Positions 8,468-48,530 are shown, counted from the stretch's first letter. The stretch: DNA of 64,000 nt from Flaccisagitta enflata (GCA_965153355.1 OZ231126.1:43896001-43960000), one strand, 5' to 3'. Notes: generated from the sequence alone by a model not told the origin. Translations and numbers: made by a program.

Positions 8468-9123
8468 CTTTTTTCCTTAACATAATCTTATCACAGGCTC
8501 ATCATACGATCAAGTTGCCTTTTTTTTCTCTGGCGTCCGGGATGAGAGAGAGAGAAGGATGAAAAAATTTCCCTCTTCTTTGCTTCTGAATTATCGGTTT
8601 GAGCCTTACTTAGACTCTCTTCAAGCTCCGATACATATTTTATCAGCTCACGTCCGCAACCCAGAAGATATCCGCACTTGTCCGTGTGTCAGTTGGTGGG
8701 TGATGGTGGCGGTGCGAATGGACATACGATAGAACAAGGCCGGATACACGGGCCAAGACGGCGCGCCGAGCGTTATTAATTCATAGCCATCCCTGGCTCC
8801 ATCAGACCTATCCCCAGCTCTATCAGACCATTCCTAGCTCTATCAGACCTATCCCGCCAGGCGTTATTAATCCATAGCTATCCCTAGCTCCATCAGACCT
8901 ATCCCTAGCTCTATCAGACCATTCCTAGCTCTTTAAGACCATTCCTAGCTCTATAAGACCTATTCCGAGCTCTATCAGGCCTCTCCCGAGCTATATCAGA
9001 CCTTTCCCGAGCTCTATCAGACCTATCCCGAGCTCTATCAGACCTATCATCAGCTCTTTCAGACCTAACCCCAGCTCTATCAGACCTATCCTAAGACCTA
9101 TCCGACCTATCACCAGACCTAAC

Positions 9124-9825
9124 TGTTCGTAATTGCGCCGTATTTTGTTTATCCTCTTATCCATCTACAGGAAATCTCGCTAAATTCGTTATTTTTGGGG
9201 TCGCTCCAAAGACTCGTCTTCCTCATCATCCTCCTCCTCTCTCCTCGATTCCTCGTCCTCCTCATCCTCCCTCCTCGTCATCCTCGACTTCTCTCTTCCC
9301 AATGGACTTCTTCTTCCCAAAAGAAAACATTATCAGAATTCTTCGCCATCATTCAAGATCTAATGACTCATTTTAAGATCATTTAGAGATCATTTAAAGA
9401 TCATTTAAAGATTAAAAGACTCATCGCTTCGCCTTTTCATTGCCTCATTGTATTTCTTCTTGTTATAAGATTTCTCTTTTCTCCCCAGTGCAAGCGAGCA
9501 AGCTTCCATTTTTGTATCGTTTCTATAAGACTTTAATATGGTTATTTCGCGCGTTTGCTGTCATCCCCCCCTTCTGGAAATCATTCATCCTCGACTCCTC
9601 AGGTAGTGAGCCTGCTCAATGATGTGGACTGGCCCACTCTTTTCCTATCGGCTCAAACTAATCCTCCCCCCCTTTCTCTTCTCTTTTGTCATTGTAGAAC
9701 TTACAGATCCCTTCATTCTCCAATTCGCGTATTCGTTCTAGCGGGATTCTTAAGACGGAGTTACTCAGCGATCATCAGGGCATCTAGCTAGCTAATGAAC
9801 TGTTCATACGTCACAAACTCGCACA
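9124..9825 (+). repeat. 5' LTR of element A
   Basis: TGTTCGTAATTGCG...AACTCGCACA; two substitutions seen by eye versus the 3' LTR. Confidence 0.97.
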
Positions 9826-10103
9826 ATCTGTAAGTTCTGACAGTTCACTGGCTCCTTCGGTGAAAGCAAGCGAACAACATCCGCCTCCCCCTCCTCCTCA
9901 TCCTTCCGATCACGAAAGAGCTCAAGAACGTTCTCCTCATCATCTTCCTCTTCACTTCCCCTTCCTCCTCATCCTACCAATTACGCTGAAAGCTCAAGAA
10001 CGTTCTCCTCCTCCTCATCTTCCATTACGTCATCCCTCCTCCTCATTCTTCTAACACGGTGAAAGATAAAGAAACCCTATCCTCTTCCTCATCATCCATC
10101 ACG

Positions 10104-12480
10104 ATGGCAGCAAAGTCCCGCGCAGAAAGAGCCAAAATCCTGGAAGATACTTTAAGAAAAATGCCCGACTTCAACGCCTTGATCGTGGCGGCTGACGCCG
10201 GAGCTATCGGCGGAAGCGGCGCCTCGGTAAACACCGCGATGACATCGGACTTTCAAACGGAAAATGACGAGAGGTCTAGAGAAGCGAAGGCAACGGCACA
10301 AACACTAGGATTGCTCGCGCGTTTCTTCGCTTTACGACATGACGATGTACTAAAAGAATTCGCCGGCGTCGACGATCATGACGCACATCAGGCCTTCCTC
10401 GACATCGACGACATGCGCGTCGCGCTCGTGGGAAAGATGTGGCTGTTTCACGAAATGGTCACGAAAAAACTATTTCCCGCCAATACAAAAGAAGACGTTC
10501 ACGGACGAAAATCGGCTGGAAACCATATCAATGTCATCCTAAAAAACTTTTTCCATACGCGCCGCGCATGCCTTTCACAAGAAACATACGACGACCCTGA
10601 TTACGCCCCAGCCCCACCGACAAAAACTGACTTTGTGCAACAACCCGGCAGAAAGCCGGCGCCGTCGGCGACCCCCGGAAAATCGGGGGAAGTCGCGACG
10701 CCATCGGCTACAGATGTGAAAGTAGACAGAAAAACAATTGCTTCTAAAAATGCGAAAAAGGACGAAGAAGAGCAAGATACTGCGACCGAGAAGCCAGACG
10801 GCGCCGACAACGCCGCCGCAAAAGAATCCGGCGCCCTCGAGGAAGACGGCGCCGAAACCGAGGACGATGCCGAGGCAATTGCGACGGAAGAAGAAAATGA
10901 ACGTCTTGAACAGGTTTTGAGAGAAGAAAATGAAAAAAATATACGTCTCAGAGAAGAACTTAAAAATCTAGAAGCTATCCAAGAAATGCAGAAAAAAGAA
11001 CGGCAAAAGAAAAAGAAAAAGAGAAAAACAAGAAAATGTGAAAACAATTCAAGCAAAAAATCAAGAGATAATCGACAAAATTGACAAAATCCAGTACGAA
11101 ATTAATGATGAAGCCGACGAACCTGCGGATGAAAACGAGATCCAAATTTTTGACAACGGCGCTGTCTCGTCTACAAAAAATGATGCGGCGTCATCGCCCA
11201 ATACAGTCGCCGAATCGTGTGCAGACAACGCCGCCGCCCCTGCTGGAAATGGCAAGAAAAAACGCCGTTACCAAATTAAAGAACACCCAAATGCAGCAAA
11301 AGTACCGCCACCAAATTTCCCACCTCTAGGTAATAGCGGCGCCGCGGGAGGTCATGCATCCCCTGCAGCCGTCGCTGTACAGCAGATTGACGCCGCAGCT
11401 CCGAATCAACCCGACTTTTCAAGACTTATCCATACGCTAGAACTTGATGCTGTCAGACGTAACGTTGTAGGCGTACGTCCTTCAGAACCTTTTAAGCAGT
11501 ACGACGCAAAGAAACAGGGCGAATATAACACACTGATGAACATTTTCGACTCGGCATTCGGTAAAATTAACGGCATATCCGGCAATGAAAAAGTCACGGA
11601 ATTATCGGGACATTGGTTCGCCGGCGCCGCAAAAAAAGCTATCAACGCCGCAAAGCCAACAGTTAACGACCCCAATGGAGACGCCGCTTACAAAGAAATA
11701 AGGTGCCATTTGGACAGTATATTTGCCCACGATGTTGATTCCGCCGCCGACGCCCTTAATCGTTTAAAAGAAGGCGGCGCCATCGCAAGGGACAGCCTCA
11801 TTGCACATCAAGATCTGTACATGAACATGCTAGAAGCTCAGAGCTCCGCGTTGACGGTATCCTCGGCGGAGTTGTTTGACAGAAGGAGTAGCCTCCTAGA
11901 GATCATTTCTGCGCGAATACCATTTTATGCAGAGAAATTCTTTGAAGAATACGAACAAGGAGATGGCTTTCAAAAACTTCTCGATTTTGTCCTTACGCGC
12001 ATTAACCTCCTCAAAATCATTCAAATGTCGATAGAACCCGAAACGACTCAAACGGAAGCCGAAGGAATAAAGCATCAGCATCATCTCCACGCTACCGACC
12101 ATCAGACGCAGCATCATTTTGAACAAAATAAAAGCTGCATGTATTGCAAAAACCGTCACGATACATCAAAATGCGATAAACTTTACTGCCTTTCCATAGA
12201 AGACAGAGTAGCAGTAATTTCCACGCTCCATCTCTGTTACCACTGCCTCCGCCCTGGACACAACGCCAGATCCTGTCCAGAAAAGAGGGAAGTCACCTGC
12301 AGCATCTGCAGCAGGAAAGGGCATGTGACGCTCCTTCATGGCAGGCATCTTCTCCACTCTCCCAACGACTCGCCGTATCGTCACCGACGCAACGATTCTG
12401 ACGACGCCGGCGATGACACAAAGTCCGACCTCGAAGCGCTCGAGTCCAACGGAACTGAGGATGAAAATGAATTATGTTGA
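10104..12480 (+). pseudogene. gag: BEL/Pao-type Gag of element A, split by a +1 frame change in an A-rich tract near 11000-11040
   Basis: ORFs 10104-11084 and 11038-12480 overlap. C-terminal triple knuckle CMYCKNRHDTSKC, CYHCLRPGHNARSC, CSICSRKGHVTLLH is typical of BEL/Pao Gag. Confidence 0.85.
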
Positions 12481-12634
12481 GTCGTTGAGAACTTGGACCG
12501 TAATTCTTCGATCTCTCGTTGTACTCGATCTGCTCATCTCCGTCACGCCATTCAACTCCATTCACGCCATTCATCTCCGTCAATCCATTCATCAGTTCCT
12601 TGAATGAAAACAACAATTAAGATCGGCTTTTCTT

Positions 12635-12709
<75 letters not shown>

Positions 12710-12933
12710 GATTACGACTCGCCTCATAAAAAATTACCGCGTTCACTCGACAGAGGTCATCCTAAAAAAGAAAAAAGCTCTCTCGTTTACTGCGACAAAT
12801 TTCATCACTCCCCCCCCCCCCCGTTCACACAAAATTTCATCCTCGTCATCAAAATCCTTATTCCAACTCAACGCCAACGACAATAAAGCCCCGTTACCTT
12901 CAACTTATCCTCAGCCTCATCACATGAACTATT

Positions 12934-13290
12934 CCCGTCTGTCATCTTCCCGTCTGTTATCTTCCCGTCTGTCATCTTCCCGTCTGTCATCTTCCCGTCT
13001 GTCATCTTCCCGTCTGTCATCTTCCCGTCTGTCATCTTCCCGTCTGTCATCTTCCCGTCTGTCATCTTCCCGTCTGTCATCTTCCCGTCTGTCATCTTCC
13101 CGTCTGTCATCTTCCCGTCCCTCATCTTCCCGTCCATCATCTTCCCGTCTGTCAGCTTCCCCTCTGTCATTTTCTCGTCTATCATCTTCCCGTATGTCAT
13201 CTTCCCGTCTGTCATCTTCCCGTCTGTCATCTTCCCGTCTCTCATCTTCCCGTCTGTCATCTTCCCGTCTGTTCATCTTCCCGTCTGTCA
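12934..13290. repeat. 15-bp minisatellite (TCATCTTCCCGTCTG)n inside element A
   Basis: More than 20 tandem copies, homogeneous at the left end and diverging to the right. Confidence 0.95.
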
Positions 13291-14005
13291 TACTCCCATC
13301 TCTCATCTTCTCTTTTTCGCAATAATCAAACTCGCATCATATGAAAACCATCATTTTTACGTTGGAGGCATCTCCGGCGCTTAGTCGGGGTCATCTCCTG
13401 CGTATCTACATCGCCAAAATCTCTCTCTCTCTCTCGAACCGCCTCTTCTATCAACGAAAATCAGACAAAACTAGGCCTACACCTTCGCATATGACTCTCC
13501 ATGTCATATTAAAGAATCACCCTAAAATGCCGCCGTTTCACCTCAACGTCGGCAACAATGTGTCAACTTTATCCTCGGCGTTGTCCCACACCCATCCCTA
13601 GGGTCTCGTCAACATCGTTCCCGCCATCTACTGACATCGCCCCTCAATCTCGCCTTCTGTCATATCCTGTCACCCGTCCTCATCATCCACGTCCAAGTTT
13701 TGTTTCCTTCGACCTGTTCTTTTGACTAAGCGCCAATAATCGAACTCGCATAATATTCACCGGCATCATCACATCCCCCCCTTAATTCGGATCACGACAC
13801 GAAAAAGAAATTCCTCGTTTTGCCATTACTGACGTCAATGCCGTCAATCTCACCTCTTCTGTATCTCATTTCTCATCCTCCATCACGTCCCTAGCATCTT
13901 GTTCCCACAGACTATTCTGATAAAAAAAAAACATTACTCTACGTTGGAGGCATCCCCGGCTCTTAGTCGGGGTAATCTCTTGCGTATCTCCATCGTCTGA
14001 ATCTT

Positions 14006-14080
<75 letters not shown>

Positions 14081-14476
14081 CCCCTCGTTGATTACAACGT
14101 TATTAACCCCCGTTTCACGTCAACGTCAACAATAATGCGTCAACTTTATCCTCGGCTTTCTGCTCGACCTCGCCATCATCATTCCCGCCATCAACATACA
14201 TCCCCCCTCAATCATGCCTTCATGCTTTCATCTCTTCTCACCCGTTCTCATCATCCACGTCCTAGTTCTGTTTTCTTCTGTTTTCTATCCTGGACTTTAT
14301 CGTCAACTCCTATGGACTACTTATCAATCTCGCCTTCATCATTTTCGACCACTCACGTTTTCTTTCCATTCTCATCTTAATCATTCCGCCATCCCCCTGC
14401 CACTCAGTATCATCATTTTACGTTGGAGGCATCTCCGGCGCTTAGTCGGAGTCATATCTGACATATCTCCATCGCC

Positions 14477-14557
<81 letters not shown>

Positions 14558-14805
14558 CTCGCCCTCTCGCTCTCGCTCTCGCCCTCTCGCTCTCGCTCTC
14601 GCCCTCTCGCTCTCGCTCTCGCCCTCTCGCTCTCACTCTCGCTCTCGCCCTCTCGCTCTCGCTCTCTCTCTCGTTATCATATCTCATATCCTCTCATATC
14701 ACATCGTATCATGCCAGGGATGAGTGCCGTCGCCGTTGGCGAACCCGGGAGATTCTGGGGATGCTACGGCAGCAAATGGCAAAACAGATGCCCTGGATCC
14801 TTCTC

Positions 14806-14889
<84 letters not shown>

Positions 14890-15632
14890 AGAAGAAGAAG
14901 AAGAAGAAGCAACCAACAAAGATGTAGTCCTCGTCCGATCCTCGTCATCCTCCTATCCTCATCCTCGTCATCCGTCCCTTCCTCATCCTCGTACAACGCC
15001 GGCGAATGAGCGTCATCCTCCTTCTCCCCCCGCTCCTCATCAAGCCGCCAAGCTAGGATGCAGTCTAGGATGCAGTCTGGCTCAGTTACGCTTATCTCGC
15101 TCTTCCTCCTCGTCATCATCATCATCATCAATCCCCCAACTCTCGATGGCGGAGACGCGCAATGGATCGAGTCGCCAAGGTCGTGGACGAACGCCGGATT
15201 ATCGGCGGAAAATCTGCGGCGAATGCGGCGACAAACCCGAACCCGTTACTACCGCCATCCTCATCCTCTTCTTCATCCCGATCCTCATCAAACCGCCAAG
15301 CCGGGTCCGACGCCGGAATATCGGCGTGAATCTCGGCGAAAGCGGCGACAAACTTATCTTTGACTCGCCCCATTTTCCCGCATTCCTACACGCGTTTTAA
15401 AGACTCATCCATCTCATCATCCTCATCCTTCTCCTCATCTTCTGTATATAGTTTTTTTTTTGATTCCTTTGTGTTTCTTCTTTTGTTCATCGCACATCCC
15501 CTCCCCCCAGTCCACATCATCATAACTATTTTTTAGATTTTTTTTTTCTCGCTTGCACAGTAGTCTTGTTCTCCCCTTAGTCCCCCCCCTTCGAGAAATC
15601 ACTTCATCTGCCATACTGGCAGATCCTGGGGC

Positions 15633-16334
15633 TGTTCGTAATTGCGCCGTATTTTGTTTATCCTCTTATCCATCTACAGGAAATCTCGCTAAATTCGTTA
15701 TTTTTGGGGTCGCTCCAAAGACTCGTCTTCCTCATCATCCTCCTCCTCTCTCCTCGATTCCTCGTCCTCCTCATCCTCCCTCCTCGTCATCCTCGACTTC
15801 TCTCTTCCCAATGGACTTCTTCTTCCCAAAAGAAAACATTATCAGAATTCTTCGCCATCATTCAAGATCTAATGACTCATTTTAAGATCATTTAGAGATC
15901 ATTTAAAGATCATTTAAAGATTAAAAGACTCATCGCTTCGCCTTTTCATTGCCTCATTGTATTTCTTCTTGTTATAAGATTTCTCTTTCCTCCCCAGTGC
16001 AAGCGAGCAAGCTTCCATTTTTGTATCGTTTCTATAAGACTTTAATATGGTTATTTCGCGCGTTTGCTGTCATCCCCCCCTTCTGGAAATCATTCATCCT
16101 CGACTCCTCAGGTAGTGAGCCTGCTCAATGATGTGGACTGGCCCACTCTTTTCCTATCGGCTCAAACTAATCCTCCCCCCCTTTCTCTTCTCTTTTGTCA
16201 TTGTAGAACTTACAGATCCCTTCATTCTCCAATTCGCGTATTCGTTCTAGCGGGATTCTTAAGACGGAGTTACTCAGCGATCATCAGGGCATCTAGCTAG
16301 CTAATGAACTGTTCATACGTCACGAACTCGCACA
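15633..16334 (+). repeat. 3' LTR of element A
   Basis: Same length and near-identical sequence to 9124-9825. Confidence 0.97.
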
Positions 16335-18349
16335 CTAACCGACCTATCCCCAGCTCCATAAGACCTAACCGTAGCCGATTATATTAGTGAATGAAATGAC
16401 GAGTATCATTTATGATGAACGAAATGAGTTTTCTATTGATTTCAAACGTTTTTAGCGATTTTTTACTCGAGCGTGACCGACGGATGGACGGACGGACGGA
16501 CAGAGCTTCTCATAGAGACGCTATGGCGCATCTAAAAATCATCCTAGCATATTTCTGAATCATTTCCAGTGATTTTTGCTTCTTTTCGAGATTTTCAACT
16601 CGAGCGTGACCGACCGACCGACCAACCAACAGACAGAGCCTCTCATAGAGGTGCTATGGCGCACCTAAAAATGCCATGGGAGGTTCACTGGCAGTTACTA
16701 GACCGCCGCGAATCTTGGACCAATAGATATCTATCATTTCATCATAACAGCATACATTAGAAATGCAATAATTTGAACATCTGATAATCAAAATTCATGA
16801 GCATGATCATGGAAAAATAAAACTTAATAGACAGAGTGCATGAACAAAAAACACTTAAAAGATTGAATGCTATTAACCGCCATTAATCTAAGACCGACAA
16901 TTTGGGACGTCCGCGTCCCTCATTCGCGTCCCTCGCCGTTTGTCCATAGAGGTGTGGTGTTCATCTAACTCTTGCCTATCCTAATTCTGAGAATATCTTC
17001 ATGTACGTGTTTCTCTTTTGTACGGCTGTGGTTCCATATGCACTTTTTGTCTTTGACTCTGTGTTTCTGTTTGTACAATGTGTACAATGTCCATGTGTTC
17101 AGTTCCGGTACAAATTTGCCAATAGATTCTCCATATACAATGACGTCAATTACTGTTTCTATTTCATTCCTTATCTCTACTAACTCTTTCATCAATTATC
17201 AGTCGAACGCTGATGCCGTGAGGAAAATGTCCCAGAAACTTTTCCGTTCATCCTTTGTTTTCCCTCTTTATCATTTATTAATAAAAAAAAATCATATAAT
17301 ACATAATGGCGCAAACACGCTTCTGAAATGTTATCAACGGCTGTGGAGTGTCTCGCACGTAAATACGTCAACCCCGGTCTCGATCTATCTTACCACCTTG
17401 TCCATTTTTCATCCCTTTAACAACGGCTTTGACCTACATCTCCGCGATCACGAGTATTTATGATGTCCCTCGCACGTGACCTTTGCTGCATTAACCCTCA
17501 TTTCCACATTCTTTATATCGTGTTGATTCCGCCATCCACCATTTAGTCATACGACCCGTACATTTTGATTGAATGATCTTCTTCTTATCAACCATTACCA
17601 AGTCATGCTAACTTCCGTCAACCATACATTTTTCTAGGGGGGAGAGTAAGGAAAGGAGGTCCTTTTAGACCCATTTACCAACTTTTTTCCCTTTCGCTTA
17701 AACACATAGGGTGTAACATTGAAGACAATTCAGGTCTTGTTTTCGGCATTTCACTGCAAAAAAATCAATGTTTGTTTCTGAAAATTTACCTTATTTAATT
17801 CGATTTATTTATTTTCCAGTGTCGACGTTGCATCCCTTTCTGTACTTTCGGCTATCCACATTCTTTGCTGTTAGCGTTTGCCCCCAACCAACTCCCCCTT
17901 TCTACTCCCCCTCCCTTCAAAGCTAAGCTACTATTCTACTTGTTTCCCATTCCGGGGCCTTTTGTCTTTCTCTCCTCGTTCGTTGGTCGGTGGCAAGTGA
18001 GTGACAGAAAACGGAGTCTTTGACATATTTCCTCCCATATATTCTCGCGTTCTCCTCCCCTTTACCCCCCCCCCCGCCTTGCCCCCACCCCAATCATATC
18101 ATGAGCTTCCGCCGACCCACCTCCCTACTGACTTTTCTTATTTCTTTTTTCTTCTTTTCCTTTTTCTATTCATTAATTCGTTTATTCATTCATTCATTCA
18201 TCCATTAATCCATTCATTTATTCATTCATTCATTCAACATCTATTCATCTTCTTCCTTTCTTTCTCTTTTTTTCCTTCTTTTTTAAAAGATGTGGTTTTT
18301 GCTCTCTATTTTACGTTTGGCTTTTAATTATGCCTTTCCCACTCCCTCA

Positions 18350-29355: not shown

Positions 29356-32110
29356 TATTCCATGGGAATTTCATATTTTTTTCATTTTTCATCAATTTTC
29401 CATGTTATTCTATGGGTAGTTTGCAATTTATCAATTTTCCATGTTATTTAATGGGAAATTGAGGCTTGAGAAGCTGGGGGGATGGACGTGCGGACGGACG
29501 GACGGACATTTGGAAATTCACCCCTGTGTCCTACAAGGGTTCAAGTTGAGAGAATTTCTAACATTCTGTATTGATTGCGTTTGTTGTTTTTTCGTCGCTT
29601 TTTTCTTATCTTTTGTCCCTTTTTCGACATTTCCTGATAGTCATAGGTGTGTCTTACTATATCTCTACCTATACATCGTCAGTCGGTCTGTGGTGATCGA
29701 GTTGGAAAGCGTGAAAATGTGCACTTCCGTCCCTGCCCACCCGTCTGCGGCTGATATTGGCCCTTGTTTCTGTTCATGTCCCAAACGACTAAGAAATGAT
29801 GACTTCAGAACAAATTCAAAGATTACAATTTAGGACACAGTTTATTTGAACGACAAACTCGGTCTATCAGTTTTTTATAACTTTAAGTTATTAGAATAAT
29901 AAATAAATAAACTCATAGATAGTTTGTTAAGTCCAGAACTATAGTTTTTAATACTACAAAATTATAATTCAGCAGTATTTTACATCTGCATATATGTAGA
30001 ACATACCTTAGATAATTATCAAAAGAACAATATTTATAATTGAAAATATGATAGATGAACGAATAGACAAATGAATTAATAGAAAGATTAAGATAGCAAA
30101 ATCATTTTGTTTGTCGGAGTCTAAAAATAATGATGAAATTAATCATTATTATTAGTGTGTAAACTATTAAAAAATTATAATGATATTGTATTATGAAATG
30201 AATAAAACAATCTATTAAATTCATACATTTCTAAAAAAAGATCTAATCTAAAACATATTTCAAGTGAAATTATGAAGCCCTTTAGTTCAATAATATGTAA
30301 AAAAATATAAATTAGAAATGCTAGTTTTTAAAATTAAAAACAAATAAAATAATCTATTTTTAGAATCTTATTTTTAGTCGCGGACACGCGACTCTACACC
30401 TTGCCGTGTCGGTCGGTAAGCCAATAGGTCGGTCCGTCCGTTTGTCCATCCGTCCGTCCGTCCGTCCGTCCAAGCGGTTTTCGCATCACTGCTCCTGCCC
30501 AACCGTCCGCGACTGGATTGCCGTGTACCTGGCCATGTTAAATGATATTTGATTTTTTAAAATCTTTAACCTTAAAAAAATCGGGTAATTTGTATTTAAA
30601 TTTCTATAATTTTTAACTCTAATTAAATCTTGCCTCGACCCTCAAATTTTACCTCTCGTTTGCATCTTGACTTAGATTAAGTTACAGCGAATGAGCTTCT
30701 TAATTCTATATAAACCGAAAGTGAGAGAGAATCTTGAATAAACCGAAAGTGAGAGAAATAGAGAGAGAACAAGGCCGGATACACGGGCCAAGACGGTGCG
30801 CCGGGCGTTATTAATTCTTAGACCTATCCCTAGCTCAATCAGACCTATCCCTAGCTCTATCAGACCTATCCCTAGCTCTATCAGACCTATCCCGAGCTCT
30901 ATCAGGCCTATCCCGAGCTCTATCAGACCTATCCCTAGCTCTATCAGGCCTATCCCGAGCTCTATCAGACCTATCCCAAGCTCTATTAGACCTATCCCGA
31001 GCTCTATCAGACCTATCCCGAGCTCTATCAGACCTATCCCCATACCTATCTGACCTATCACCAGACCTATGCGACCTATCCCCAACTTGATCAGACCTCA
31101 ACTTAGCTGATTATTTTGGTGAATGAAATGAATTTTTGTGAATGAAATGAATTTTGTGAATGAAATGAACGAAATGAGTTTTCAATTGATTTCAAACATT
31201 TTCAGCTAATGAAATAAATGAATGAATGAATGAATGAATGAATGAATGAATGAATCAATCAAGGAATGAATGAACGAATGAACGAATGAATGAATGAATC
31301 AATCAATCAATGAATGAACGAATGAAGGAATGAATGAATGAATGAATTTATGAATGAATGAATTTATAAATGAATGAATGAATTTATGAATGAAATGAAT
31401 TTTAGTGAATGAAATGAATTTCATTGAATGAAATGAATTTTAGTGAATGAAATGAATTTTAGTGAATGACCTCAATGTAGCTGATTGTTTTAGTGAATGA
31501 AATGAATTTTAGTGCATGAAATGTATTTCAGTGAATGAAATGAACGAATTGAGTTTTCAATTGATTTCAAACATTTTCAGTGAATGAATGGAATGAATGA
31601 ATGAATGAATGAATGAAATGAATGAATGAATGAAATGAATGAATGAAATGAATGAATGAATGAAATGAATGAATGAATGAAATGAATGAATGAATGAAAT
31701 GAATGAATGAATGAAATGAATGAATGAAATGAATGAATGAAACAAATAAATGAAATGAATGAATGAAATAAATAAATGAAACAAATAAATGAAATGAATG
31801 AAATGAATGAAATGAATGAAATGAATGAAATGAATGAAATGAATGAAATGAAATGAAACGAATGAAATGAAATGAATGAAATGAATGAAATGAAATGAAA
31901 CGAATGAAATGACTGAAATGACATGAAATGACATGAAATGAATGAAACGAATGAATGAATGAAATGAATGAAATGAATGAAATGAATGAAATGAATGAAT
32001 GAAATGAATGAATGAAATGAATGAATGAAATGAATGAATGAAATGAATGAATGAAATGAATGAATGAAATGAATGAATGAAATGAATGAATGAAATGAAT
32101 GAATGAAATG

Positions 32111-32607
32111 TGTGAGATTGCGACATGGTTTCCTGCCGCCAGTTCACGCTTTTGGCGATTGCTTGTCTATTTAGCTTAGCGTGAACACGTCCTTTTTCTG
32201 CCTAATTTGCATGTTGAGGCGTGTGGAAAATGAGAACTTCCATTGTAATTCTACATCGCCGCCAATGTGTCTATTTTGTTTAAGTAAAATAAATTAATGA
32301 AAGTTTGCCACCACACCTCTCACAAAAAGGCTCTAAATTGAACAAGAAAAAGGAAAAAATTAATACATGACCCCACAGTTGAGACAATACGAGACCAAAA
32401 CGATAAAAACGATGCAATAACGATAAAACGACGCGAAAACGATAAAAATACAAGGAAAAAAATGATAAAAAACGCGCACATATCCCCAGCAGCGAAGCAT
32501 CGATAAAGAATAAAATCAACTCCGTAAGACTACGGACGGAAAAAATCAAAAAGGGCAATGCATGCGACAAAAAATGGAAACAAAAAACAAAAGACGCATT
32601 TCCAAAA
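32111..32607 (-). repeat. 3' LTR of element B
   Basis: Near-identical to 37335-37831. Confidence 0.95.
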
Positions 32608-34909
32608 CTCCCGGCCAATTTTTTAATTTAAAAAATTTTTTCCCAAAAAAGTTTCGAGAGGGGGGCAAAATCTAAGGATAGCATAAAAACAAAGAAAAAT
32701 TGGGGGAGATCGAGTAAGGATGGGGACACACAAACGAAAACAGCACACACCACCCGCGCATTCCCCTGGGGACGAAGGGTGCTACTGCTCTGCAGCTTGC
32801 TCAATAGACAAACACCCCCTTCCCGTCTCACTCGACCATGCTACCCAAAGGACAAAATTGGCGACTAAACTACAGCTAATACAATGACAAATTAATATAA
32901 CGATTCAGATGGTATGTTAATGAGACGCACCCCTACCCCCATCAAGACCCACCACCCACCGTCTACAGGGCCAGCACCCAATCACCGACCAAGGTGGCGC
33001 CGCTGCCTTAGGCTCGGTTCCAGCTTATGCCATTATCAACGTTACCGTCGACGATGAACCAGCAGCTTCACGGCGGCCTTGGGGCCTTGTTGCGCAACTA
33101 CCAGGACAGTGAAAGAAAAAGACAGGAACCAACCCTCGCCCTTAGTGGACCGACCCAAGGGATATGACCAACGACTAACGACCAAATGAGGCCTGAAACA
33201 TAACCACACAGGCCACATCCACGCCTGGGGAAAAATGGTAGCCTGCCCAGGGGCCCGCCCAACAAGACAGGAAGGCGAGGAACTCAATAAGGGGCAATAC
33301 AACGCACGCCTCTTTTCATCTTTCCCTTGAAAACCTCACCCCCCACTCAACAAACGTGTTAGTACCCCAACCACGACGCTGTCCGGGAGCATAATCACTC
33401 GCGAGTGGAAGAGGCTTCTTTTTGTTGAGATCTAGGGATCATTGAGTAGACATGGGCTGCTGCCAAATTGACAATCGACTTCATCGCCCGCACGAAAGAG
33501 TCAATTCCACAATGGCCGCCAAAACAAGACATAAGAGAGCCGGCGTTGAGGAGAATTTACCTAGTTAAGACGGGGATAGGGGGGGGGGGAAGGGGGGTTT
33601 GGGACCTTGTGGTATTTCCAGACAGGGGAACATGACCGGAAATACATCAGGGATTAAAAACCAGCAATGATAAGAGATACTACACCTAAAATAAATAATT
33701 AAAGTCAGCCAACGTGTAAATGTCACGTTAAGAATAGATAGAAATAAAAAATGCGCAAACGCAAAACGAACAACGAAATCACGTGCTAAAAACGCGAAAC
33801 GCAAAACGAAATTGACCAAAAATACCAATCAATGACCAGTAATAAATAATGTTACAATAATAATGCATAAAAATGATAAAAAGGCGCAGCCAAAAAACGA
33901 CAAAACCATCCCTTATCCCCTACCCATTGGGTAACAAATCACAAGCGATAAAAACAGAAGAAACCAAAAGAGAAAAGGAGACAGAGCGAAACGGAGCAGG
34001 GAAGAGAAAGAGTCAAAGGGAGCAGGGAAGAGAACGAAAGAACACAAGAGAGGCAAAAACGAGAAGGAAAAAAGAAAGGAGAGACCGAGAGAGAGAATGA
34101 GAAAGAGAACGAGAACGAGAAAGAGAACGAGAGAGAGAACGAGAGAGAGAACGAGAAAGAGAACGAGAAAGAGAGCGAGAGAAACAACAAAACAGAACGA
34201 GAAACAGAACGAGAGAAACAACAAAACAGAACGAGAAACAGAACGAGAGAGAACAAAAACACTACGCAAAACAAAACAATGCCCATCACCTAAAATGATG
34301 ATGAGAAAGAGCGTGGAAATCGACTTTCGGAGATTCCTCTGCTTCTTTAATCCCATCGAACGTCGAGAGACGTAGCCAGTGGAGGAGGAGGAGGAGGAGA
34401 AGACGGAGGAAGGGAGAATGATCGGCGCCATCTTTGAAAGGAGTCGAGACGACGAGTGCCGCCATCTTTCTTCCTGCGTGGGCCGGAAGTGATCACGGGC
34501 GCCCTCCAGCAATTGAAAAAACCGTCCGGAAGCAACTGTTGGGTGAATACAAAGAAAACACGCAAACAGAGGACGTAAAAACGTTATCAAAACACTAACA
34601 GATAAGGGGCGGGAAAAGAAAGGGCTATGCATTGAAACGATTTGACTCAGTGCAACATGGTCAAGCAATCCTCAATGTCAATCACTCTTTCAATTAAACT
34701 TATCCGTTTTAGAAGTGTCGATATGGAACACATAAAAATGCATTCCATCGCCAAAATCCAAAATCCAGCTGTCAAAGGCCCCTCCACCGGACAAATGGAA
34801 GACTTCAAGGAGCTGGGGACGCGTCTGTTTGCAATCACGTGACTTGTATGGACATGAAGGCGCATTTGCGGAAGTGAGGCAAGAAGGGTAGATTGGATGG
34901 TAAAATAAC

Positions 34910-36937
34910 TCATTGATTAAAATTCCGGCCGTGAAGGATCGTTGCGTGGCCTCGGCCGCACATTTGACACGTTGGCTTATTGTCGCAGTATTTGGCCGTG
35001 TGGCCCTTCACAAGGCAATGGTAGCAGAGTTCACGCTTTGACAAAATGTCCACCCTTGAGTCGACGGAGACTTCTATCAAAATGGGGCACTGGGAGGTAG
35101 GGTGGGGATGGCCACAAACCCCACACACCGTCACATGTTCGTCGGGTGGCATTTGCCCACATTTCCTTTTAATTATTGCCCATCGCTCCACCAGCTCTAC
35201 CAAATTACGGTAGTCATAGCTTCCGCGGCCACTCATTTCCGATTCAAAGTTTTCCGTCCAAAATTTGTCGGCGAGATGAGGGAGTCGATTATTGAGGATG
35301 AGACGAAGTCTGTTATCGTTATGACACACCTCTTCCTCTCCACACACCATCGCCACCTTTTCAGCCTTCAGCAATTCCGCGTATAGGAGAAAGTGGGCCT
35401 TGTAATCATGCTCTGCGATTGGAGGAGCGGATGCAATTCCATCAAGCAGTGCGCCAACTGTACTTGAGTCCCCTTGGAATATCGTGTCCATCCGTTTAAA
35501 GCACTGCCCCAACTCAAAGGCGGCAGTTTCTGCTGTCACGCCAATTGTCGCCGTCATGATGACATCAGATACAGGGCCACTAAACCAATGTGGTAACTCC
35601 AAAATCATGTCCATTTCCGTAATTCCCTTGTTATTTGCTGCCTCCAGAAATCTCCGTTTCACGACAATGTAGTCTGCAGGCGTCAATGACTGGTATGGAG
35701 TTCTTGGTCGCGCCTTTTCCAAGTTCCTATAACCAATTTCCCGCCATCTAATGAAATTGTCCGCATGGGATGCTGTAATGAATTTCCCAATGGCACCATC
35801 TAGCGAGACTGTTGAGGGTTGGTGCGCTAAACCCTGCCGTGCCGCATGGGAACCCGTTTGGCGCCGCGTTAAAGGAGATGAAGGAGGAAGAGGAGAATGA
35901 AAGTGGTGTTCATCGATAGATTGAGATTCGTTGACCCCTGCAGCCATCTGTTGTCTCGGCGGTTGTTGTTGGTAACCACCACCAAACGCTGACCGCCGCT
36001 GGGGCACATAGTCTTCCTTTACGATTGTACCACGTAGTGGAGGCGGAGGAGGAGGATTGGAAGGATGGTGATGAATTTGTGTCGTCTGAGGTTCATGGTG
36101 ATCTGTGACTGTCGGACGTTCCTGGGATGGTTGCTGATGTCGATAACCACCACCGACTACTACCAACTGCTCGTGATCTCCACCCACCTGCCTGACGATC
36201 TCACCATCACCATTCGCAGTTCTAGCAATCTGATCCCCCTCGATTCGATATTGCCGCTGATGGTGCTGCTGACGAGCTTGTTGAGACACCGGAGGTTGTC
36301 GATGATGGTGCTGTTGAAGCTGCTCGTGTACCGGCTCTCGCGTTGTTTCTTCCGAAGAGAAATGTTGCATCGGCCTAACATCCCGCTGCTCAAATGCGCC
36401 ATCTAATTCACCTCGGTTCTGGTCGTCCCAACTCATGCGTCGCAATGCCTCGTCAACCGCTTCCGCATCAAAACCCAATTTATGGGGGGTACATCGGCAA
36501 TATTTAAGAATTCCCTCCGTTGTCGGGAATTTATCGGAGTACAAGTCTGTTGCGAAAAATTTCATCTTTGCCCATTTGCTACGCACAGTTTTCAGGCTAT
36601 TTGCAGTGTACGTCCACAAATCGTATGCATCGTCAAGCTCGCCTGATTTCGAAATGTCGTTGGTTTTGGCGAGGTAACGATAAACGATTCCTTGAAGGCC
36701 GTCGCGCGCAAAATCTGAATCTGCCGCTGCCATTTCATCTTCGGGGTTGATGGCCGCGTTATTAAAGGCCATTTGAGCCTCATTTAAGGCCGCTACCACA
36801 TTTGCCCGCATCTCGCGCAACTCGATGATACGATCATGTTGGCAACCCGCAAAGTATGATGCCAAAGACGAAATTGAGGTGTTGTGTACACCCCTATCAA
36901 CCATCGTTGTCGACGGAACAGACATTCTAGCGTCCAT
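34910..36937 (-). CDS. gag: Intact BEL/Pao-type Gag of element B, 675 aa
   Basis: Uninterrupted ORF with knuckles CGVCGHPHPTSQC, CYHCLVKGHTAKYC, CQMCGRGHATILH. Aligns by eye with Gag A (ELPHWFSG vs ELSGHWFAG; RLPHLADKFW vs RIPFYAEKFF). Confidence 0.93.
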   Translation of the reverse strand: MDARMSVPSTTMVDRGVHNTSISSLASYFAGCQHDRIIELREMRANVVAALNEAQMAFNNAAINPEDEMAAADSDFARDGLQGIVYRYLAKTNDISKSGELDDAYDLWTYTANSLKTVRSKWAKMKFFATDLYSDKFPTTEGILKYCRCTPHKLGFDAEAVDEALRRMSWDDQNRGELDGAFEQRDVRPMQHFSSEETTREPVHEQLQQHHHRQPPVSQQARQQHHQRQYRIEGDQIARTANGDGEIVRQVGGDHEQLVVVGGGYRHQQPSQERPTVTDHHEPQTTQIHHHPSNPPPPPPLRGTIVKEDYVPQRRSAFGGGYQQQPPRQQMAAGVNESQSIDEHHFHSPLPPSSPLTRRQTGSHAARQGLAHQPSTVSLDGAIGKFITASHADNFIRWREIGYRNLEKARPRTPYQSLTPADYIVVKRRFLEAANNKGITEMDMILELPHWFSGPVSDVIMTATIGVTAETAAFELGQCFKRMDTIFQGDSSTVGALLDGIASAPPIAEHDYKAHFLLYAELLKAEKVAMVCGEEEVCHNDNRLRLILNNRLPHLADKFWTENFESEMSGRGSYDYRNLVELVERWAIIKRKCGQMPPDEHVTVCGVCGHPHPTSQCPILIEVSVDSRVDILSKRELCYHCLVKGHTAKYCDNKPTCQMCGRGHATILHGRNFNQ

Positions 36938-37334
36938 TGGAAACTGGCGCGATAACGTTTTTAGAGTCCATTTTGCTTGGACTTTTTCACTTGCTTAGTC
37001 TACGCATCACCCGTCGGTTTTAGCTCGCAGAAAAATGGACCGGGTTCGCTACCACCGACCATGTCAAAATTCAGCGTCAGTTAAGCATCACCCGTCGGTT
37101 TTTAGCGCGCAAATAAACAGGTTCGCTACCACCAGACGCCAAATGCACTTGGGGAAAAGCACAATGTATCTCGACGTTAAAAGGACGATTCGTCGACGCG
37201 TAAATTCTCTCATTGACATCACGTCCCGGCGCCCCGGCGCCATAGGCCGTCACTTAGCATGACAGCATCCCGGGTCAGGGCAGGGGACACGAATAGACGA
37301 GTGAAGACGGCGTCGATTTTTTAATTTATTTTAC

Positions 37335-37831
37335 TGTGAGATTGCGACATGGTTTCCTGCCGCCAGTTCACGCTTTTGGCGATTGCTTGTCTATTTAGCT
37401 TAGCGTGAACACGTCCTTTTTCTGCCTAATTTGCATGTTGAGGCGTGTGGAAAATGAGAACTTCCATTGTAATTCTACATCGCCGCCAATGTGTCTATTT
37501 TGTTTAGGTAAAATAAATTAATGAAAGTTTGCCACCACACCTCTCACAAAAAGGCTCTAAATTGAACAAGAAAAAGGAAAAAATTAATACATGACCCCAC
37601 AGTTGAGACAATACGAGACCAAAACGATAAAAACGATGCAATAACGATAAAACGACGCGAAAACGATAAAAATACAAGGAAAAAAATGATAAAAAACGCG
37701 CACATATCCCCAGCAGCGAAGCATCGATAAAGAATAAAATCAACTCCGTAAGACTACGGACGGAAAAAATCAAAAAGGGCAATGCATGCGACAAAAAATG
37801 GAAACAAAAAACAAAAGACGCATTTCCAAAA
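37335..37831 (-). repeat. 5' LTR of element B
   Basis: Reads TTTTGGAAATGCG...CAATCTCACA on the minus strand; one substitution seen versus 32111-32607. Confidence 0.95.
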
Positions 37832-38126
37832 AAATGAATGAATGAAATGAATGAATGAAATGAATGAATGGAATGAATGAATGAAATGAATGAAATGAAT
37901 GAATGAATGAAATGAATGAATGAAATGAATGAATGAAATGAATGAATGAAATGAATCTTAGTGAATGAAATGAATCTTAGTGAATGAAATTAATCTTAGT
38001 GAATGAAATGAATCTTAGTGAATGAAATGAATTTTAGTGATTGAAATGAATGAAATGAGTTTTCAATTGATTTCAGACATTTTCAGCAAGTTTTCATTCG
38101 AGCGTGACCAACGGATGGACAAACCT

Positions 38127-43624: not shown

Positions 43625-44047
43625 GTGAGATATGCAAAAAAAATATCCAAGCGAGAGAGAAAATGATGAAAGTAAATATGAAAAATAACCGACAGACCTC
43701 CAGAAAGATAGCAAGACAAACAAACAAACAAACAGACGGGAGGAGAAAAAATTCATACTTTTCTCCCCCATTCCATCTTTGCCAAGTGACGGATACACGG
43801 CCCCTGAATCGTGGAAAATTAATTTAACAAAGCCGGATATGCTCTCTTTCCATTGACATCATACCTTTTAACCCTACTCTTTCTCATGTATATAACAGTT
43901 ATGCCCTCTCCACTCCAACCCCTTCTTCTGCCCTTTCATGTTTCTTAACAGTAATGGCGGCTGTCGCCGTGAGGAAAAAAGTCGTAAGCTTTGATCCCTT
44001 TTCACCAAACTTTTGTCTTCAGTCACTGCAAATCTCTTTGTTTGTTA

Positions 44048-44648
44048 CAGTGGGGTTCGTGGAATAACAGCCTAAACTGGAGGAAGGTATTTAAGTGTCT
44101 TATTTTCATTTGATAAACTTGATATTTAAAATATAAGTTGTTCACTCAATGCTTTTGTCCCTGAGTTTTTCGGTTGCTATGGAAACCAAAATTATTTCTT
44201 TAAATATTTATAACCACTAAAACATCAATATTTTGAGAAATATTATCAGGGAACATTGCTCAAAATTTAATTTGCTACAATTTTCCCACAGTATGTTCTG
44301 TAAGAATATTGCTTGTTTGGCCGTTGCTAGGGGCATCACACCTAGCAACCGCTAAATGATGCTCCCTAGCAACGGCTAAACGAGCGATATTCTTACAGGA
44401 CATACTGTGGGAAAGTTGTAGCAAATTTAATTTTGAGCAATGTTCCCTGATAATATTTGTCAAAATATCAATATTCTAGTTATTATGAATGTTTAAAAAA
44501 ATAATTTTGGTTTCCATAGCAACCAAAAAACTCAGGGACAAAAGCATCGAGTGAACAACTTATATTTCAAATATCAAGTTTGTTAAATGAAATCAAGACA
44601 CTTAAATACCTTCCTCCAGTTTAGGCTGTTATTCCACGAACCCCACTG
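44048..44648. mobile_element. Second copy of the palindromic CAGTGGGG MITE, opposite orientation
   Basis: Same TIRs and TA TSD; central spacer is the reverse complement of that in 5866-6467. Confidence 0.93.
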
Positions 44649-46060
44649 TAGATCAAATCAAAAGCAATTGTATGTATTGATTGCACTAAAAATCAGAGAA
44701 AAATAGGACTGCGCCAAATGAGTTAGATGAGCTAAAATGCTCAAAATCACTCAACCAGATAACCAGCTATGCTCACTGACATGCTTTCTTGTATTTACAC
44801 ATCACATCAAAACATTTATTTATTTCTCCCAGAAAAAAAAAGACTGAGCTAAATGAGCTAAGTGAGCTAGAATACTTAAAAACACCCTCGGAGATGAGCA
44901 GCTATGCTCTGGGACGTGCTTTTTTGTATCTGCTTGCTTAAACATGTATCAAAATATTTATTCATTTATAGCATTTGAAATCAGAAAAAAATACTGAGCT
45001 AAATGAGCTAGAATGCTCAAAAACACCCTCACAGATGAGCAGTTATGCTCATAAACATATTTCTTGTATTTGCATGCATAAATATCTGCAAGCAAATCCT
45101 CTTCCTCCTTTTAAAACCATTATGTCGGTCGGTCGGTCGCGTCGGTTGGTCAGTCACCATTTTCTTTTTGAGTGTATTCGGGCGAATTTTGCATTACTGC
45201 TCCTGCCCAAATGCTTGAAATAGTTTTTTATATCACTGCTCCTGCCCACCGCACGCAACTTTGGTAGCCGTGTATCCGGCCTTGTTTTTCTTTCAACCAG
45301 TCTTTAAAAACTCAAACCATTCTCAATGATTTATCATGAACATATGACGCACTGAAAATTACCGTAGAATTAGCTACCCAAGCCAGATGAATTTTGATTT
45401 TCATAACATCAATTTTGATAAAGTTTTTTGCTTGTGTGTGATCAATTAACATATGAATAGATATATTTTGCATGAAAAAACTTTAACAAGTCAGTTCAAG
45501 TCTTGAGTCATGAATTTTGTGGTAAAAAAACAGACAAAATCATGGAAAATCTCACTTTGTTATTGAACCATGACTTATACAGAATTCCAAATTTGCATAG
45601 AAACCAAAATCTCAAAAAAATAAGACCATAGCGCGATCCCCAACTCAGTTACTGATCGCGCTATGTTCTTATTTCATGGAAATTTTGATTTTCTGTGCAA
45701 ATTTGAAATTCTGTGTGAGCTCAAAATAAATCGATTGTCGCTAATTTCTTCACTTTTTCTTAACTTCATGGTCAAATTTCTTTCGTTCCTTTTTCCCATT
45801 TTATCATTTATCAATGAAATACCATTTCTCTTATGTAATTAAACAAACTAAAGTTTGAAAAAAAAAAGCAGATATTGATGAAATAGAATTGTTAATGTAA
45901 TTGATTCGTTTGTCCTGCGAGTAAATTCCTCTATCTTAAGTTTCATTCAAATTTTTTTCTACAAGATTTAAAGAGCTGGCAAAGGACTGACAATTTGGAT
46001 ATTTCTAGACATGCGTCCCTCATGTTTCATCATGTCCCCTGTTCCATCTACCTTTATCAG

Positions 46061-47003: not shown

Positions 47004-47139
47004 TCTCTCCCTTTCTCTCTAGCAAAAAGTGAGGACACATTTATAGTTGAAAAAAATTCAATTAGTGGGAAGAAAACAAAAAGCGAATTGAGAAAGATTT
47101 TGAGACATCTGATGACAAAAAAAAACTAACTTAAATAAA

Positions 47140-48530
47140 AGACTATGGAGAGGATATTCTTGAGATAAACAAAATACAGAATATGATAAGTGGTGAGGAT
47201 GCAAGAAACAAAGGATTTGCAAAGAGATATGTGGAGATACCTAGAAAAAATAAATACAAACAAAAGATTAAGGTGTAGACACATTCTTGGGATGAAAAAA
47301 ACTCATAGATGGGAAAAAAAAGGTGAGAATGTAAAAACAAAAGATTTACAAAGCGATATATGGAGACATCTTGAAAAAAAAAATAACAGAAACAAAGGAC
47401 TAAGGTGAGGACACATTCTTGAGATTAAAAAAAATTACAGAATATGATAAGAAAAAAAAGGTGAGGATACAAAACAAAAGATTTATAAGGAGATATATAG
47501 AGACATCTTGAGAGAAAAAATAACAAAAACAAAATACTAAGGTGAGCACACAATCTTGAGATGAAAAAAAGAATACAGAATAAAGAAGAAAGAAGAAAAC
47601 GAAAAGGTGAGCACGCAAAATAATAAAAAAAGACTAACACAAACAAAAGACTAAGGTATATGTGGAGACATCTGGAGTGAAAAAAGTAACAAAAACAAAA
47701 GACTAAGGTGAGCACACAATCTTGAGATGAAAAAAAAAATACAGAAGAAAGAAGAAAATGAAAAGGTGAGCACGCAAAATGATAAAAAAAAGACTAACAT
47801 TAACAAAAGACTAAGATATAAAAAGAGACATCTTGAGAGCAAAAAATTACAAAAACAAAAGACTAAGGTGAGCACACAATCTTGAGATCTAAAAAAAATA
47901 CAGAATAAAGAAGAAAAGAAAATGAAAAGGTGAGCACGCAAAATAATGAAAAAAAGACTAACACAAACAAAAGACTAAGGTATATATGGAGACATCTTGA
48001 GAGAAAAAAATAACAAAAACAAAAGACTAAGGTGAGCACACAATCTTGAGATGAAAAAAAAAATACAGAAGAAAATAAGAAAATGAAAAGGTGAGCACGC
48101 AAAATGATAAAAAAAGACTAAGATTAACAAAAGACTAAGGTATATAAAGAGACATCTTGAGAGAAAAAAAATTACTAAAACAAAAGACTAAGGTGAGCAC
48201 ACAATCTTGAGATGAAAAAAAATACAGAATAAAGAAGAAAAGAAAAAGAATAGGTGAGCACGCAAAATAATGAAAAAAGACTAACACAAACAAAAGACTT
48301 AGGTATATATGGAGACATCTTGAGAGAAAGAAATAACAAAAACAAAAGACTAAGGTGAGCACACAATCTTGAGATGAAAAAAAAAATACAGAAGAAAGAA
48401 GAAAACTTGAGAGAGAAAAAATAACACAAACAAAAGACTAAGGTGAGCACACAATCATGAGATAAAAAAAAACAGAATGAAGAAGATAGAAGAAAAAGAA
48501 AAGGTGAGCACGCAAAATAAGAAAAAAAAA
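47140..48530. repeat. Complex satellite, period about 160-166 bp with about 55-bp subunits
   Basis: AAGGTGAGCACACAATCTTGAGAT recurs near 47539, 47705, 47865, 48029, 48190, 48352. Confidence 0.9.

Follow-up and report, generated by a model that had tools for sequence, protein, structure and literature searches.

How does reverse transcription begin in an LTR retrotransposon whose internal region opens without a recognizable tRNA-type primer site, and whose first internal bases are an exact complement of a segment of its own LTR? The question is raised by a minus-strand LTR retrotransposon (37831..32111; element B) in a 64-kb stretch of Flaccisagitta enflata DNA, referred to throughout as the window. 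According to the passages available from earlier studies, self-priming is established for Tf1 and Tf2 and has been proposed for Tj1 (PMC5341516, PMC4600332). In elements of the Tf1 type, as those passages describe them, the primer-binding site (PBS) beside the 5' LTR complements the 5' segment of the element's own mRNA, which lies in the LTR, and a cut by RT/RNase H frees the primer (PMC4600332, PMC5341516). We propose that element B uses Tf1-like self-priming in a BEL/Pao-related lineage, such that the 14 nt following its 5' LTR would serve as the PBS and its own RNA as the primer, and we place the probability of this reading at roughly 0.65.

Element B has the general architecture of an LTR retrotransposon. 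The span first proposed for the self-priming geometry, 37292-37524, takes in only part of the 5' LTR, which at its full 497 bp occupies 37335..37831 on the minus strand and forms an identity run with the 497-bp 3' LTR (32111..32607, minus strand). The two copies agree at 496 of 497 positions, and their comparison bears out the single LTR-LTR mismatch that had been noticed at the outset, A at 32283 versus G at 37507. A 5-bp target-site duplication, CATTT, can be read from the sequence at 37832..37836 and 32106-32110 (minus strand), and GGGAG at 32608..32612 (minus strand), directly upstream of the 3' LTR, is a candidate polypurine tract. Together with the LTR pair, the duplication and GGGAG, the CA end is as expected of LTR retrotransposons in general; the LTR ends CTCACA and starts TTTTGG, a start that is atypical or uncertain at its first three bases, with TG from 37828. 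This slight uncertainty, which extends to the duplication, arises because element B inserted inside a GAATGAAAT-type satellite, whose array is present on both flanks (31094-32110 and 37833-38086). The window contains further repeats. A segment of about 610 bp at 5858-6469 matches 44041-44658 at 94% when inverted and at 90% in direct orientation, which makes the unit itself palindromic or an inverted-repeat element, and a tandem array at 47102-48405 is built from units of about 160 bp that are 84-89% alike.

Read on the element strand, the 5' LTR has ...GCAATCTCACA as its last bases, up to 37335, and the 14-mer GTAAAATAAATTAA (37321..37334, minus strand) follows with zero gap, occupying the position of a PBS and providing the 3' arm of the duplex. 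The opposite arm, TTAATTTATTTTAC, is the candidate self-primer; it lies inside the LTR at 37508..37521 (minus strand, LTR positions 311-324) and is present again in the 3' LTR at 32284-32297. The plus strand at 37508-37521 carries the same 14 letters as the element strand from 37334 to 37321, making the arms perfect complements (14/14), and reading both strands thus confirmed the complementarity on which the original prediction was built. An initiator-like motif, TCATT, is found at 37520..37524 (minus strand; AATGA on the plus strand) and may act as an initiator. Its A, at 37522, stands one base before the LTR arm, which runs from 37521, exactly as had been described; the 497-bp LTR holds three copies of TCATT, one of them at the edge of the arm. 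Within the duplex, C37508 at the 3' end of the LTR arm pairs with G37334, the first post-LTR base, beside the last base of U5, a polarity that would suit priming.

A helix of this kind could in principle be an inverted repeat that arose by chance in A/T-rich DNA and has no function, and the composition of the B arm, 13 of whose 14 bases are A or T, lends itself to such an explanation. We therefore scored anchored perfect matches in 20,000 dinucleotide-preserving shuffles of the LTR of each of the two LTR elements in the window, element B and a second element (element A) described below. A match of at least 14 nt occurred in 1 of 20,000 shuffles of the B LTR, and a match of at least 11 nt in none of 20,000 for element A, where the observed length is 13. 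Shuffled LTRs, the control that the original prediction itself singled out, thus yield no comparable frequency of matches in B. Among the 4,714 internal 14-mers of element B, a single one, at offset 0, finds its perfect reverse complement within the B LTR. In the window beyond the two elements, 6 of 102,058 14-mers (both strands) match the B LTR, all of them A/T-rich, and 7 of 102,064 13-mers match the LTR of element A. A looser background, in which the reverse complement of a 14-mer may lie at any place within the 497 nt before it, is appreciable at about 1% of window positions (586/63,489 on the plus strand, 614/63,489 on the minus strand), because the window is repeat-rich. Even against this more permissive background, two elements would be unlikely to share the anchored arrangement by coincidence.

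That second element recurs to the same geometry with other letters. Element A (9124..16334, plus strand) has LTRs of 702 bp with TGT...ACA ends at 9124..9825 and 15633-16334, which are identical at 700 of 702 positions (two mismatches). An intact 5-bp target duplication, CTAAC, lies at 9119-9123 and 16335-16339, and GGGG precedes the 3' LTR, completing the general features of an LTR retrotransposon. The element sits at the edge of an array of 21-bp units (8728-9121) that recurs at 30763-31102. Its first 13 post-LTR nucleotides, ATCTGTAAGTTCT (9826..9838, plus strand), again follow the LTR with zero gap and are complementary at 13 of 13 positions to an arm within the LTR, AGAACTTACAGAT (9696..9708, plus strand). 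The zero gap had been claimed for both elements, as had perfect duplexes of unrelated sequence, and both claims are sustained at 13 nt in A and 14 nt in B. The claim that the initiator adjacency is the same stands in part: TCATT is found at the 5' edge of the arm in both elements, but the perfect duplex begins 5 nt after its A in element A as against 1 nt in B. In element A the motif lies at 9689-9693, with its A at 9691, and is one of 10 TCATT in the 702-bp LTR; five more predicted pairs and one bulge would extend the helix to 18 bp from 9691. By a rough estimate, TCATT would fall within 6 nt of the arm in both elements by chance in about 0.3% of cases. A further feature of element A is a second perfect 14-nt complement, CCAGTCCACATCAT, of mixed composition, at 15507-15520, some 112 nt before the 3' LTR, which is complementary to LTR positions 9619-9632 (also 16128-16141), about 72 nt upstream of the proposed transcription start site (TSS). 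Roughly 0.1-0.4 such complements are expected by chance over the 5.8-kb internal region, and it may reflect chance or a structure at the 3' end.

The recurrence in element A weighs against a fortuitous origin of the B duplex, since its sequence is independent and of mixed composition and is anchored at the same position. Joined to the shuffles and the internal 14-mers, it upholds the view that a chance match is unlikely, and we regard a functionless inverted repeat as very improbable. Covariation between divergent families, which the original prediction had invoked, is likewise borne out: the duplexes are unrelated, while the gag-like proteins of the two elements are homologous at 27% identity. 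The comparative support comprises these two elements and two loose-end contig variants from different runs, described below.

We propose the following sequence of events for element B. Transcription would start at the A of TCATT (37522) or close to it, a position to which the motif at the edge of the arm in both elements points indirectly, and the first RNA bases, 37521..37508 (in typical copies also 37507), would fold back onto 37334..37321. RNase H of the RT of an autonomous partner, supplied in trans, would cut after the paired 5' segment, and the freed 3'-OH, facing the last U5 base, would prime minus-strand strong-stop DNA. During plus-strand strong-stop synthesis the RNA primer would then be copied back into the PBS. 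Copying of a primer-derived PBS during plus-strand synthesis is established, and we infer it for A and B; for element B the TSS, the RNase H cut, the priming step and a partner acting in trans are likewise inferred. Because the primer would be recopied into the PBS in each cycle, the two arms would be expected to stay perfect and to drift together, which could explain an unrelated and equally perfect duplex in element A. The strongest argument is one of position, in that both helices stop exactly at the LTR end, a point set by the start of minus-strand synthesis. To the extent that sequence can speak to it, the self-priming interpretation of the original prediction is partly supported.

Self-priming would also be consistent with the lack of a conventional site. 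Judged by TGG rather than by host tRNAs, no TGG-type tRNA site was found near the LTR of either element; the first TGG stands at offset 92 in B and at offset 23 in A. A host RNA that matches the post-LTR bases could nevertheless be the primer, whether a fragment from within a tRNA, an organellar tRNA rich in A/T or another small RNA, with the LTR arm acting as a competing or regulating anti-PBS. Half-tRNA primers are described for some copia lineages in passages of PMC6317226, the 64-kb window contains no tRNA genes, and element A carries TGGCTCC... 23 nt after its LTR. Such a primer would, however, require two host RNAs for two unrelated post-LTR sequences, neither of which begins with TGG, and in addition perfect copies of the relevant segments in the elements' own LTRs. 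The TGGCTCC... of element A is also farther from the LTR, at 23 nt, than the directly downstream position given for Tf1-type elements and TRIMs in the passages available. We consider a host RNA primer decidedly unlikely.

Predicted folding of the transcripts is compatible with the self-priming helix. In RNA of element B from 37522 to 37300, the duplex is present in both the minimum free energy (MFE) and the centroid structures, with a z-score of -4.07 against 200 shuffles. RNA of element A likewise contains its duplex in both structures, its overall energy being ordinary (z -0.63 versus shuffles). From the proposed starts, the mean pair probability of the duplex is 0.64 in B and 0.98 in A, and the B value falls to 0.0 if the RNA start is set at 37580 or further upstream. 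Calculated duplex energies are -10.1 kcal/mol (14 bp) and -11.7 kcal/mol (15 bp) for B, and -16.7 kcal/mol (13 bp) and -20.5 kcal/mol (18 bp with the bulge) for A, so that the A/U-rich helix of B is predicted to be weak. A U5-IR-like structure was sought beside the duplex in these single-sequence folds; the inner hairpins differ between the MFE and centroid structures and between A and B.

Long-range pairing of this kind might instead have been selected for another role, with something else as the primer. Packaging or dimerization, control of gag translation, masking of AAUAAA in element B and, if the arm lies in U3, 5'-3' cyclization are all conceivable. Non-chance pairing that recurs in element A is what any selected structure would give, the post-LTR 14-mer of B does contain AATAAA, and the second 14-nt complement of element A indicates that other long-range pairings may exist. 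Depending on the true TSS, the arm of element B could instead lie in U3 or deep inside R. A polyadenylation signal in R was considered as well: read by eye, the stretch from the proposed TSS to the end of the LTR contains no AATAAA in A or B that would place R and U5. On the other hand, nothing would fix a purely structural helix at the LTR boundary in two families, masking of AATAAA offers no explanation for A, and no alternative primer site is visible, with no TGG within 92 nt in B. We judge a role other than priming to be rather unlikely.

Contigs from four public runs extend the comparison beyond the copy in the window; they show presence in libraries and do not show RNA ends. In one run (X1), 792 contigs were placed on 34900-37831 at a likeness of at least 88%, with very high summed depth. 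Contigs of two RNA libraries (X11 and X16) extend over the LTR, its junction with the leader and much of gag, with DNA carry-over possible. Family B is thus very abundant in a marine organism and is present in RNA libraries. These contigs of B, together with the near-identical LTRs and intact duplications of both elements, indicate that A and B are young insertions and that their design is in use. The segment 36468-37153, which comprises the leader and the first part of gag, has no contigs in either RNA run and is covered in both DNA runs, a gap that proves nothing.

Sequence variation among the contigs bears on the duplex itself. Position 37507, the base that the original prediction had placed right after the end of the primer, is A in every covering contig of all four runs, and the G in the 5' LTR of the copy in the window is therefore private to it. 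Typical B copies with A at 37507 can, by base complementarity, form a 15-bp duplex whose 15th pair involves the last LTR base, 37335. That every contig covering this position carries the letter that extends the pairing is a further point against a chance repeat. Two loose-end variants alter the arms: the LTR arm GTAAAATCAATTAA (plus strand, X11) and the post-LTR arm GTAAAATCTATTA (element strand, X3) change at the 8th base in a matching sense and clash at the 9th. As they come from different runs and probably from different subfamilies, their match is a hint and not covariation. At the TCATT motif, roughly one third of the X11 and X1 depth carries an extra G at 37522/37523, which converts TCATT to TCCATT and keeps the CA beside the arm. 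Contig breaks at 37523 were considered as a possible RNA 5' end and rejected, as they coincide with this one-base insertion variant.

To which lineage do these elements belong? Element B contains a gag-like frame at 34910..36994 (minus strand) of 694 codons from stop to stop, with its first ATG at 36937 and three Cys/His knuckles at the C-terminus. The gag-like frame of element A (10972..12480, plus strand, 502 codons) has the same C-terminal pattern and is overlapped by 113 nt, in another reading frame, by the frame 9990-11084; in element B the counterpart N-terminal part is in one frame with gag. The homology of the two gags is reflected in 52 columns that are invariant across eight sequences. 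Direct Pfam assignment of either gag gave no significant family, even at E up to 5. A profile of five gag sequences, in turn, retrieved 11,675 proteins at E up to 0.001 and reached BEL/Pao polyproteins at E of about 1e-21 to 1e-23 over their DUF1759 region. Among the long profile matches that were scanned, Peptidase_A17, the peptidase of Pao retrotransposons, and DUF1759 occur in five of five and DUF5641 in three of five. Alignment by hhalign to the Gag part of BEL/Pao gave 98.8% and E 4.4e-17, over the DUF1759 region and the Cys/His knuckles. By these profile comparisons, the gags of A and B are of BEL/Pao type. In place of the Ty3/gypsy chromovirus proteins expected of the Tf1/sushi group, the gag profile matches polyproteins of Pao type, which places A and B outside that group by descent.

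No pol sequence accompanies these gags. Pfam pol domains are absent from the nine minus-strand frames of at least 60 codons scanned in element B and from the eight plus-strand frames of at least 100 codons scanned in element A, and tblastn of five BEL/Pao polyproteins against the 64-kb window found gag parts only, with no protease, RT, RNase H or integrase. The BEL/Pao label therefore holds for gag, on the evidence of the profile search and hhalign, and does not carry over to pol, which is absent from both elements. Lacking pol, both are non-autonomous gag-only derivatives for which RT, RNase H and integrase would be needed in trans; on this sequence evidence, we classify them as non-autonomous derivatives of BEL/Pao ancestry and not as complete BEL/Pao members. 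Downstream of gag, the internal regions consist mostly of tandem repeats and microsatellites with no coding signal (12842-13351, 14462-15400 and 34029-34319); the repeat units of A measure 15 bp, and GA/CT runs occur in the two elements alike.

Searches for relatives elsewhere yielded little. A metagenome scan with the gag profile returned one contig of 1,165 bp, which holds the gag C-terminus only, without LTR or PBS. Scans of viral contigs and a protein scan of genome contigs gave no match to related elements. An 18-base DNA pattern produced 13 matches, all in bacterial records; this is, by estimate, about the number expected by chance in 596 billion bases, and the matches were set aside as unrelated.

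Comparison with known systems clarifies what is shared and what is distinct. Like Tf1 and Tf2 of Schizosaccharomyces pombe and Tj1 of S. japonicus, elements A and B have the characteristic arrangement and polarity of arms and no tRNA-type site. Unlike those Ty3/gypsy elements of the Tf1/sushi group, they have a gag of BEL/Pao type and no RT or RNase H of their own. The Tf1 duplex reportedly spans 11 bp, as compared with 14-15 bp in B and 13-18 bp in A. Moreover, the mRNA 5' end, the cleavage and a U5-IR-like structure belong to the Tf1 system, whereas A and B are known from sequence alone. Self-priming has also been predicted from sequence in plants, for Tcn1 chromoviruses and for the Ty1/copia TAR elements (Houba, Osr-1), with 12% of surveyed plant elements predicted to be self-primed according to passages of PMC6317226. 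There too, self-priming was deduced from the lack of a tRNA-type site together with post-LTR bases complementary to the LTR; Tcn1 is a gypsy and TAR a copia lineage of plants, whereas the BEL/Pao-related A and B belong to a marine organism.

Canonical BEL/Pao elements prime differently. The passages available from the ICTV profile of Belpaoviridae describe tRNA-primed replication, with an 18-nt primer site that complements the 3' end of tRNA-Arg or tRNA-Gly (PMC8742986). Elements A and B resemble these elements (Belpaoviridae, genus Semotivirus) in Gag homology, LTRs and 5-bp target duplications, and differ from them in having no TGG-type site, protease, RT, RNase H or integrase. TR-GAG, LARD and TRIM elements are non-autonomous LTR elements whose coding content is reduced to gag or lost altogether. 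Like TR-GAG, LARD and TRIM elements, A and B consist of LTRs flanking a pol-less internal region with tandem repeats. In Culex, according to the portion of the report available, 38 LTR retrotransposons contain tandem repeats and are without coding potential (PMC3286476). Elements of all these kinds have been described with tRNA-type or undefined sites, and the self-complementary site sets A and B apart from them. The available passages of a study of bivalve TRIMs describe elements without a conventional site and with a conserved GalEa hairpin, and propose no mechanism (PMC6934838); PMC3118150 leaves the primer site unmentioned.

In the literature that could be searched, the passages available tie self-priming to the Tf1/sushi and Tcn1 gypsy elements and to the TAR copia elements. 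By title and passages, no report of self-priming in the BEL/Pao group was found, including in PMC5443660, PMC3601003, PMC3286476 and PMC8220671; most subscription journals and supplements fell outside this search, so that an earlier report is possible. Within that scope, our analysis suggests that a mechanism familiar from other elements operates in a lineage for which it is undescribed. A broader scenario, to which we assign about even odds, is that the whole BEL/Pao-related lineage in Flaccisagitta enflata, including an unseen autonomous partner, has exchanged tRNA for Tf1-like self-priming, and that the gag-only parasites are copied by way of the same helix, with their arms kept by recopying of the primer.

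If this broader scenario is true, self-priming would be represented in all three LTR-retrotransposon superfamilies. A BEL/Pao-related case would also inform the question of an ancestral as against a repeated origin of hairpin or self priming, an idea raised in passages of PMC3601003. Annotation tools for LTR elements that require a tRNA-type site would overlook elements of this kind or label them wrongly. A gag-only family that is very abundant and recently mobile would offer a natural test of how RT and RNase H acting in trans recognize the RNA that they copy.
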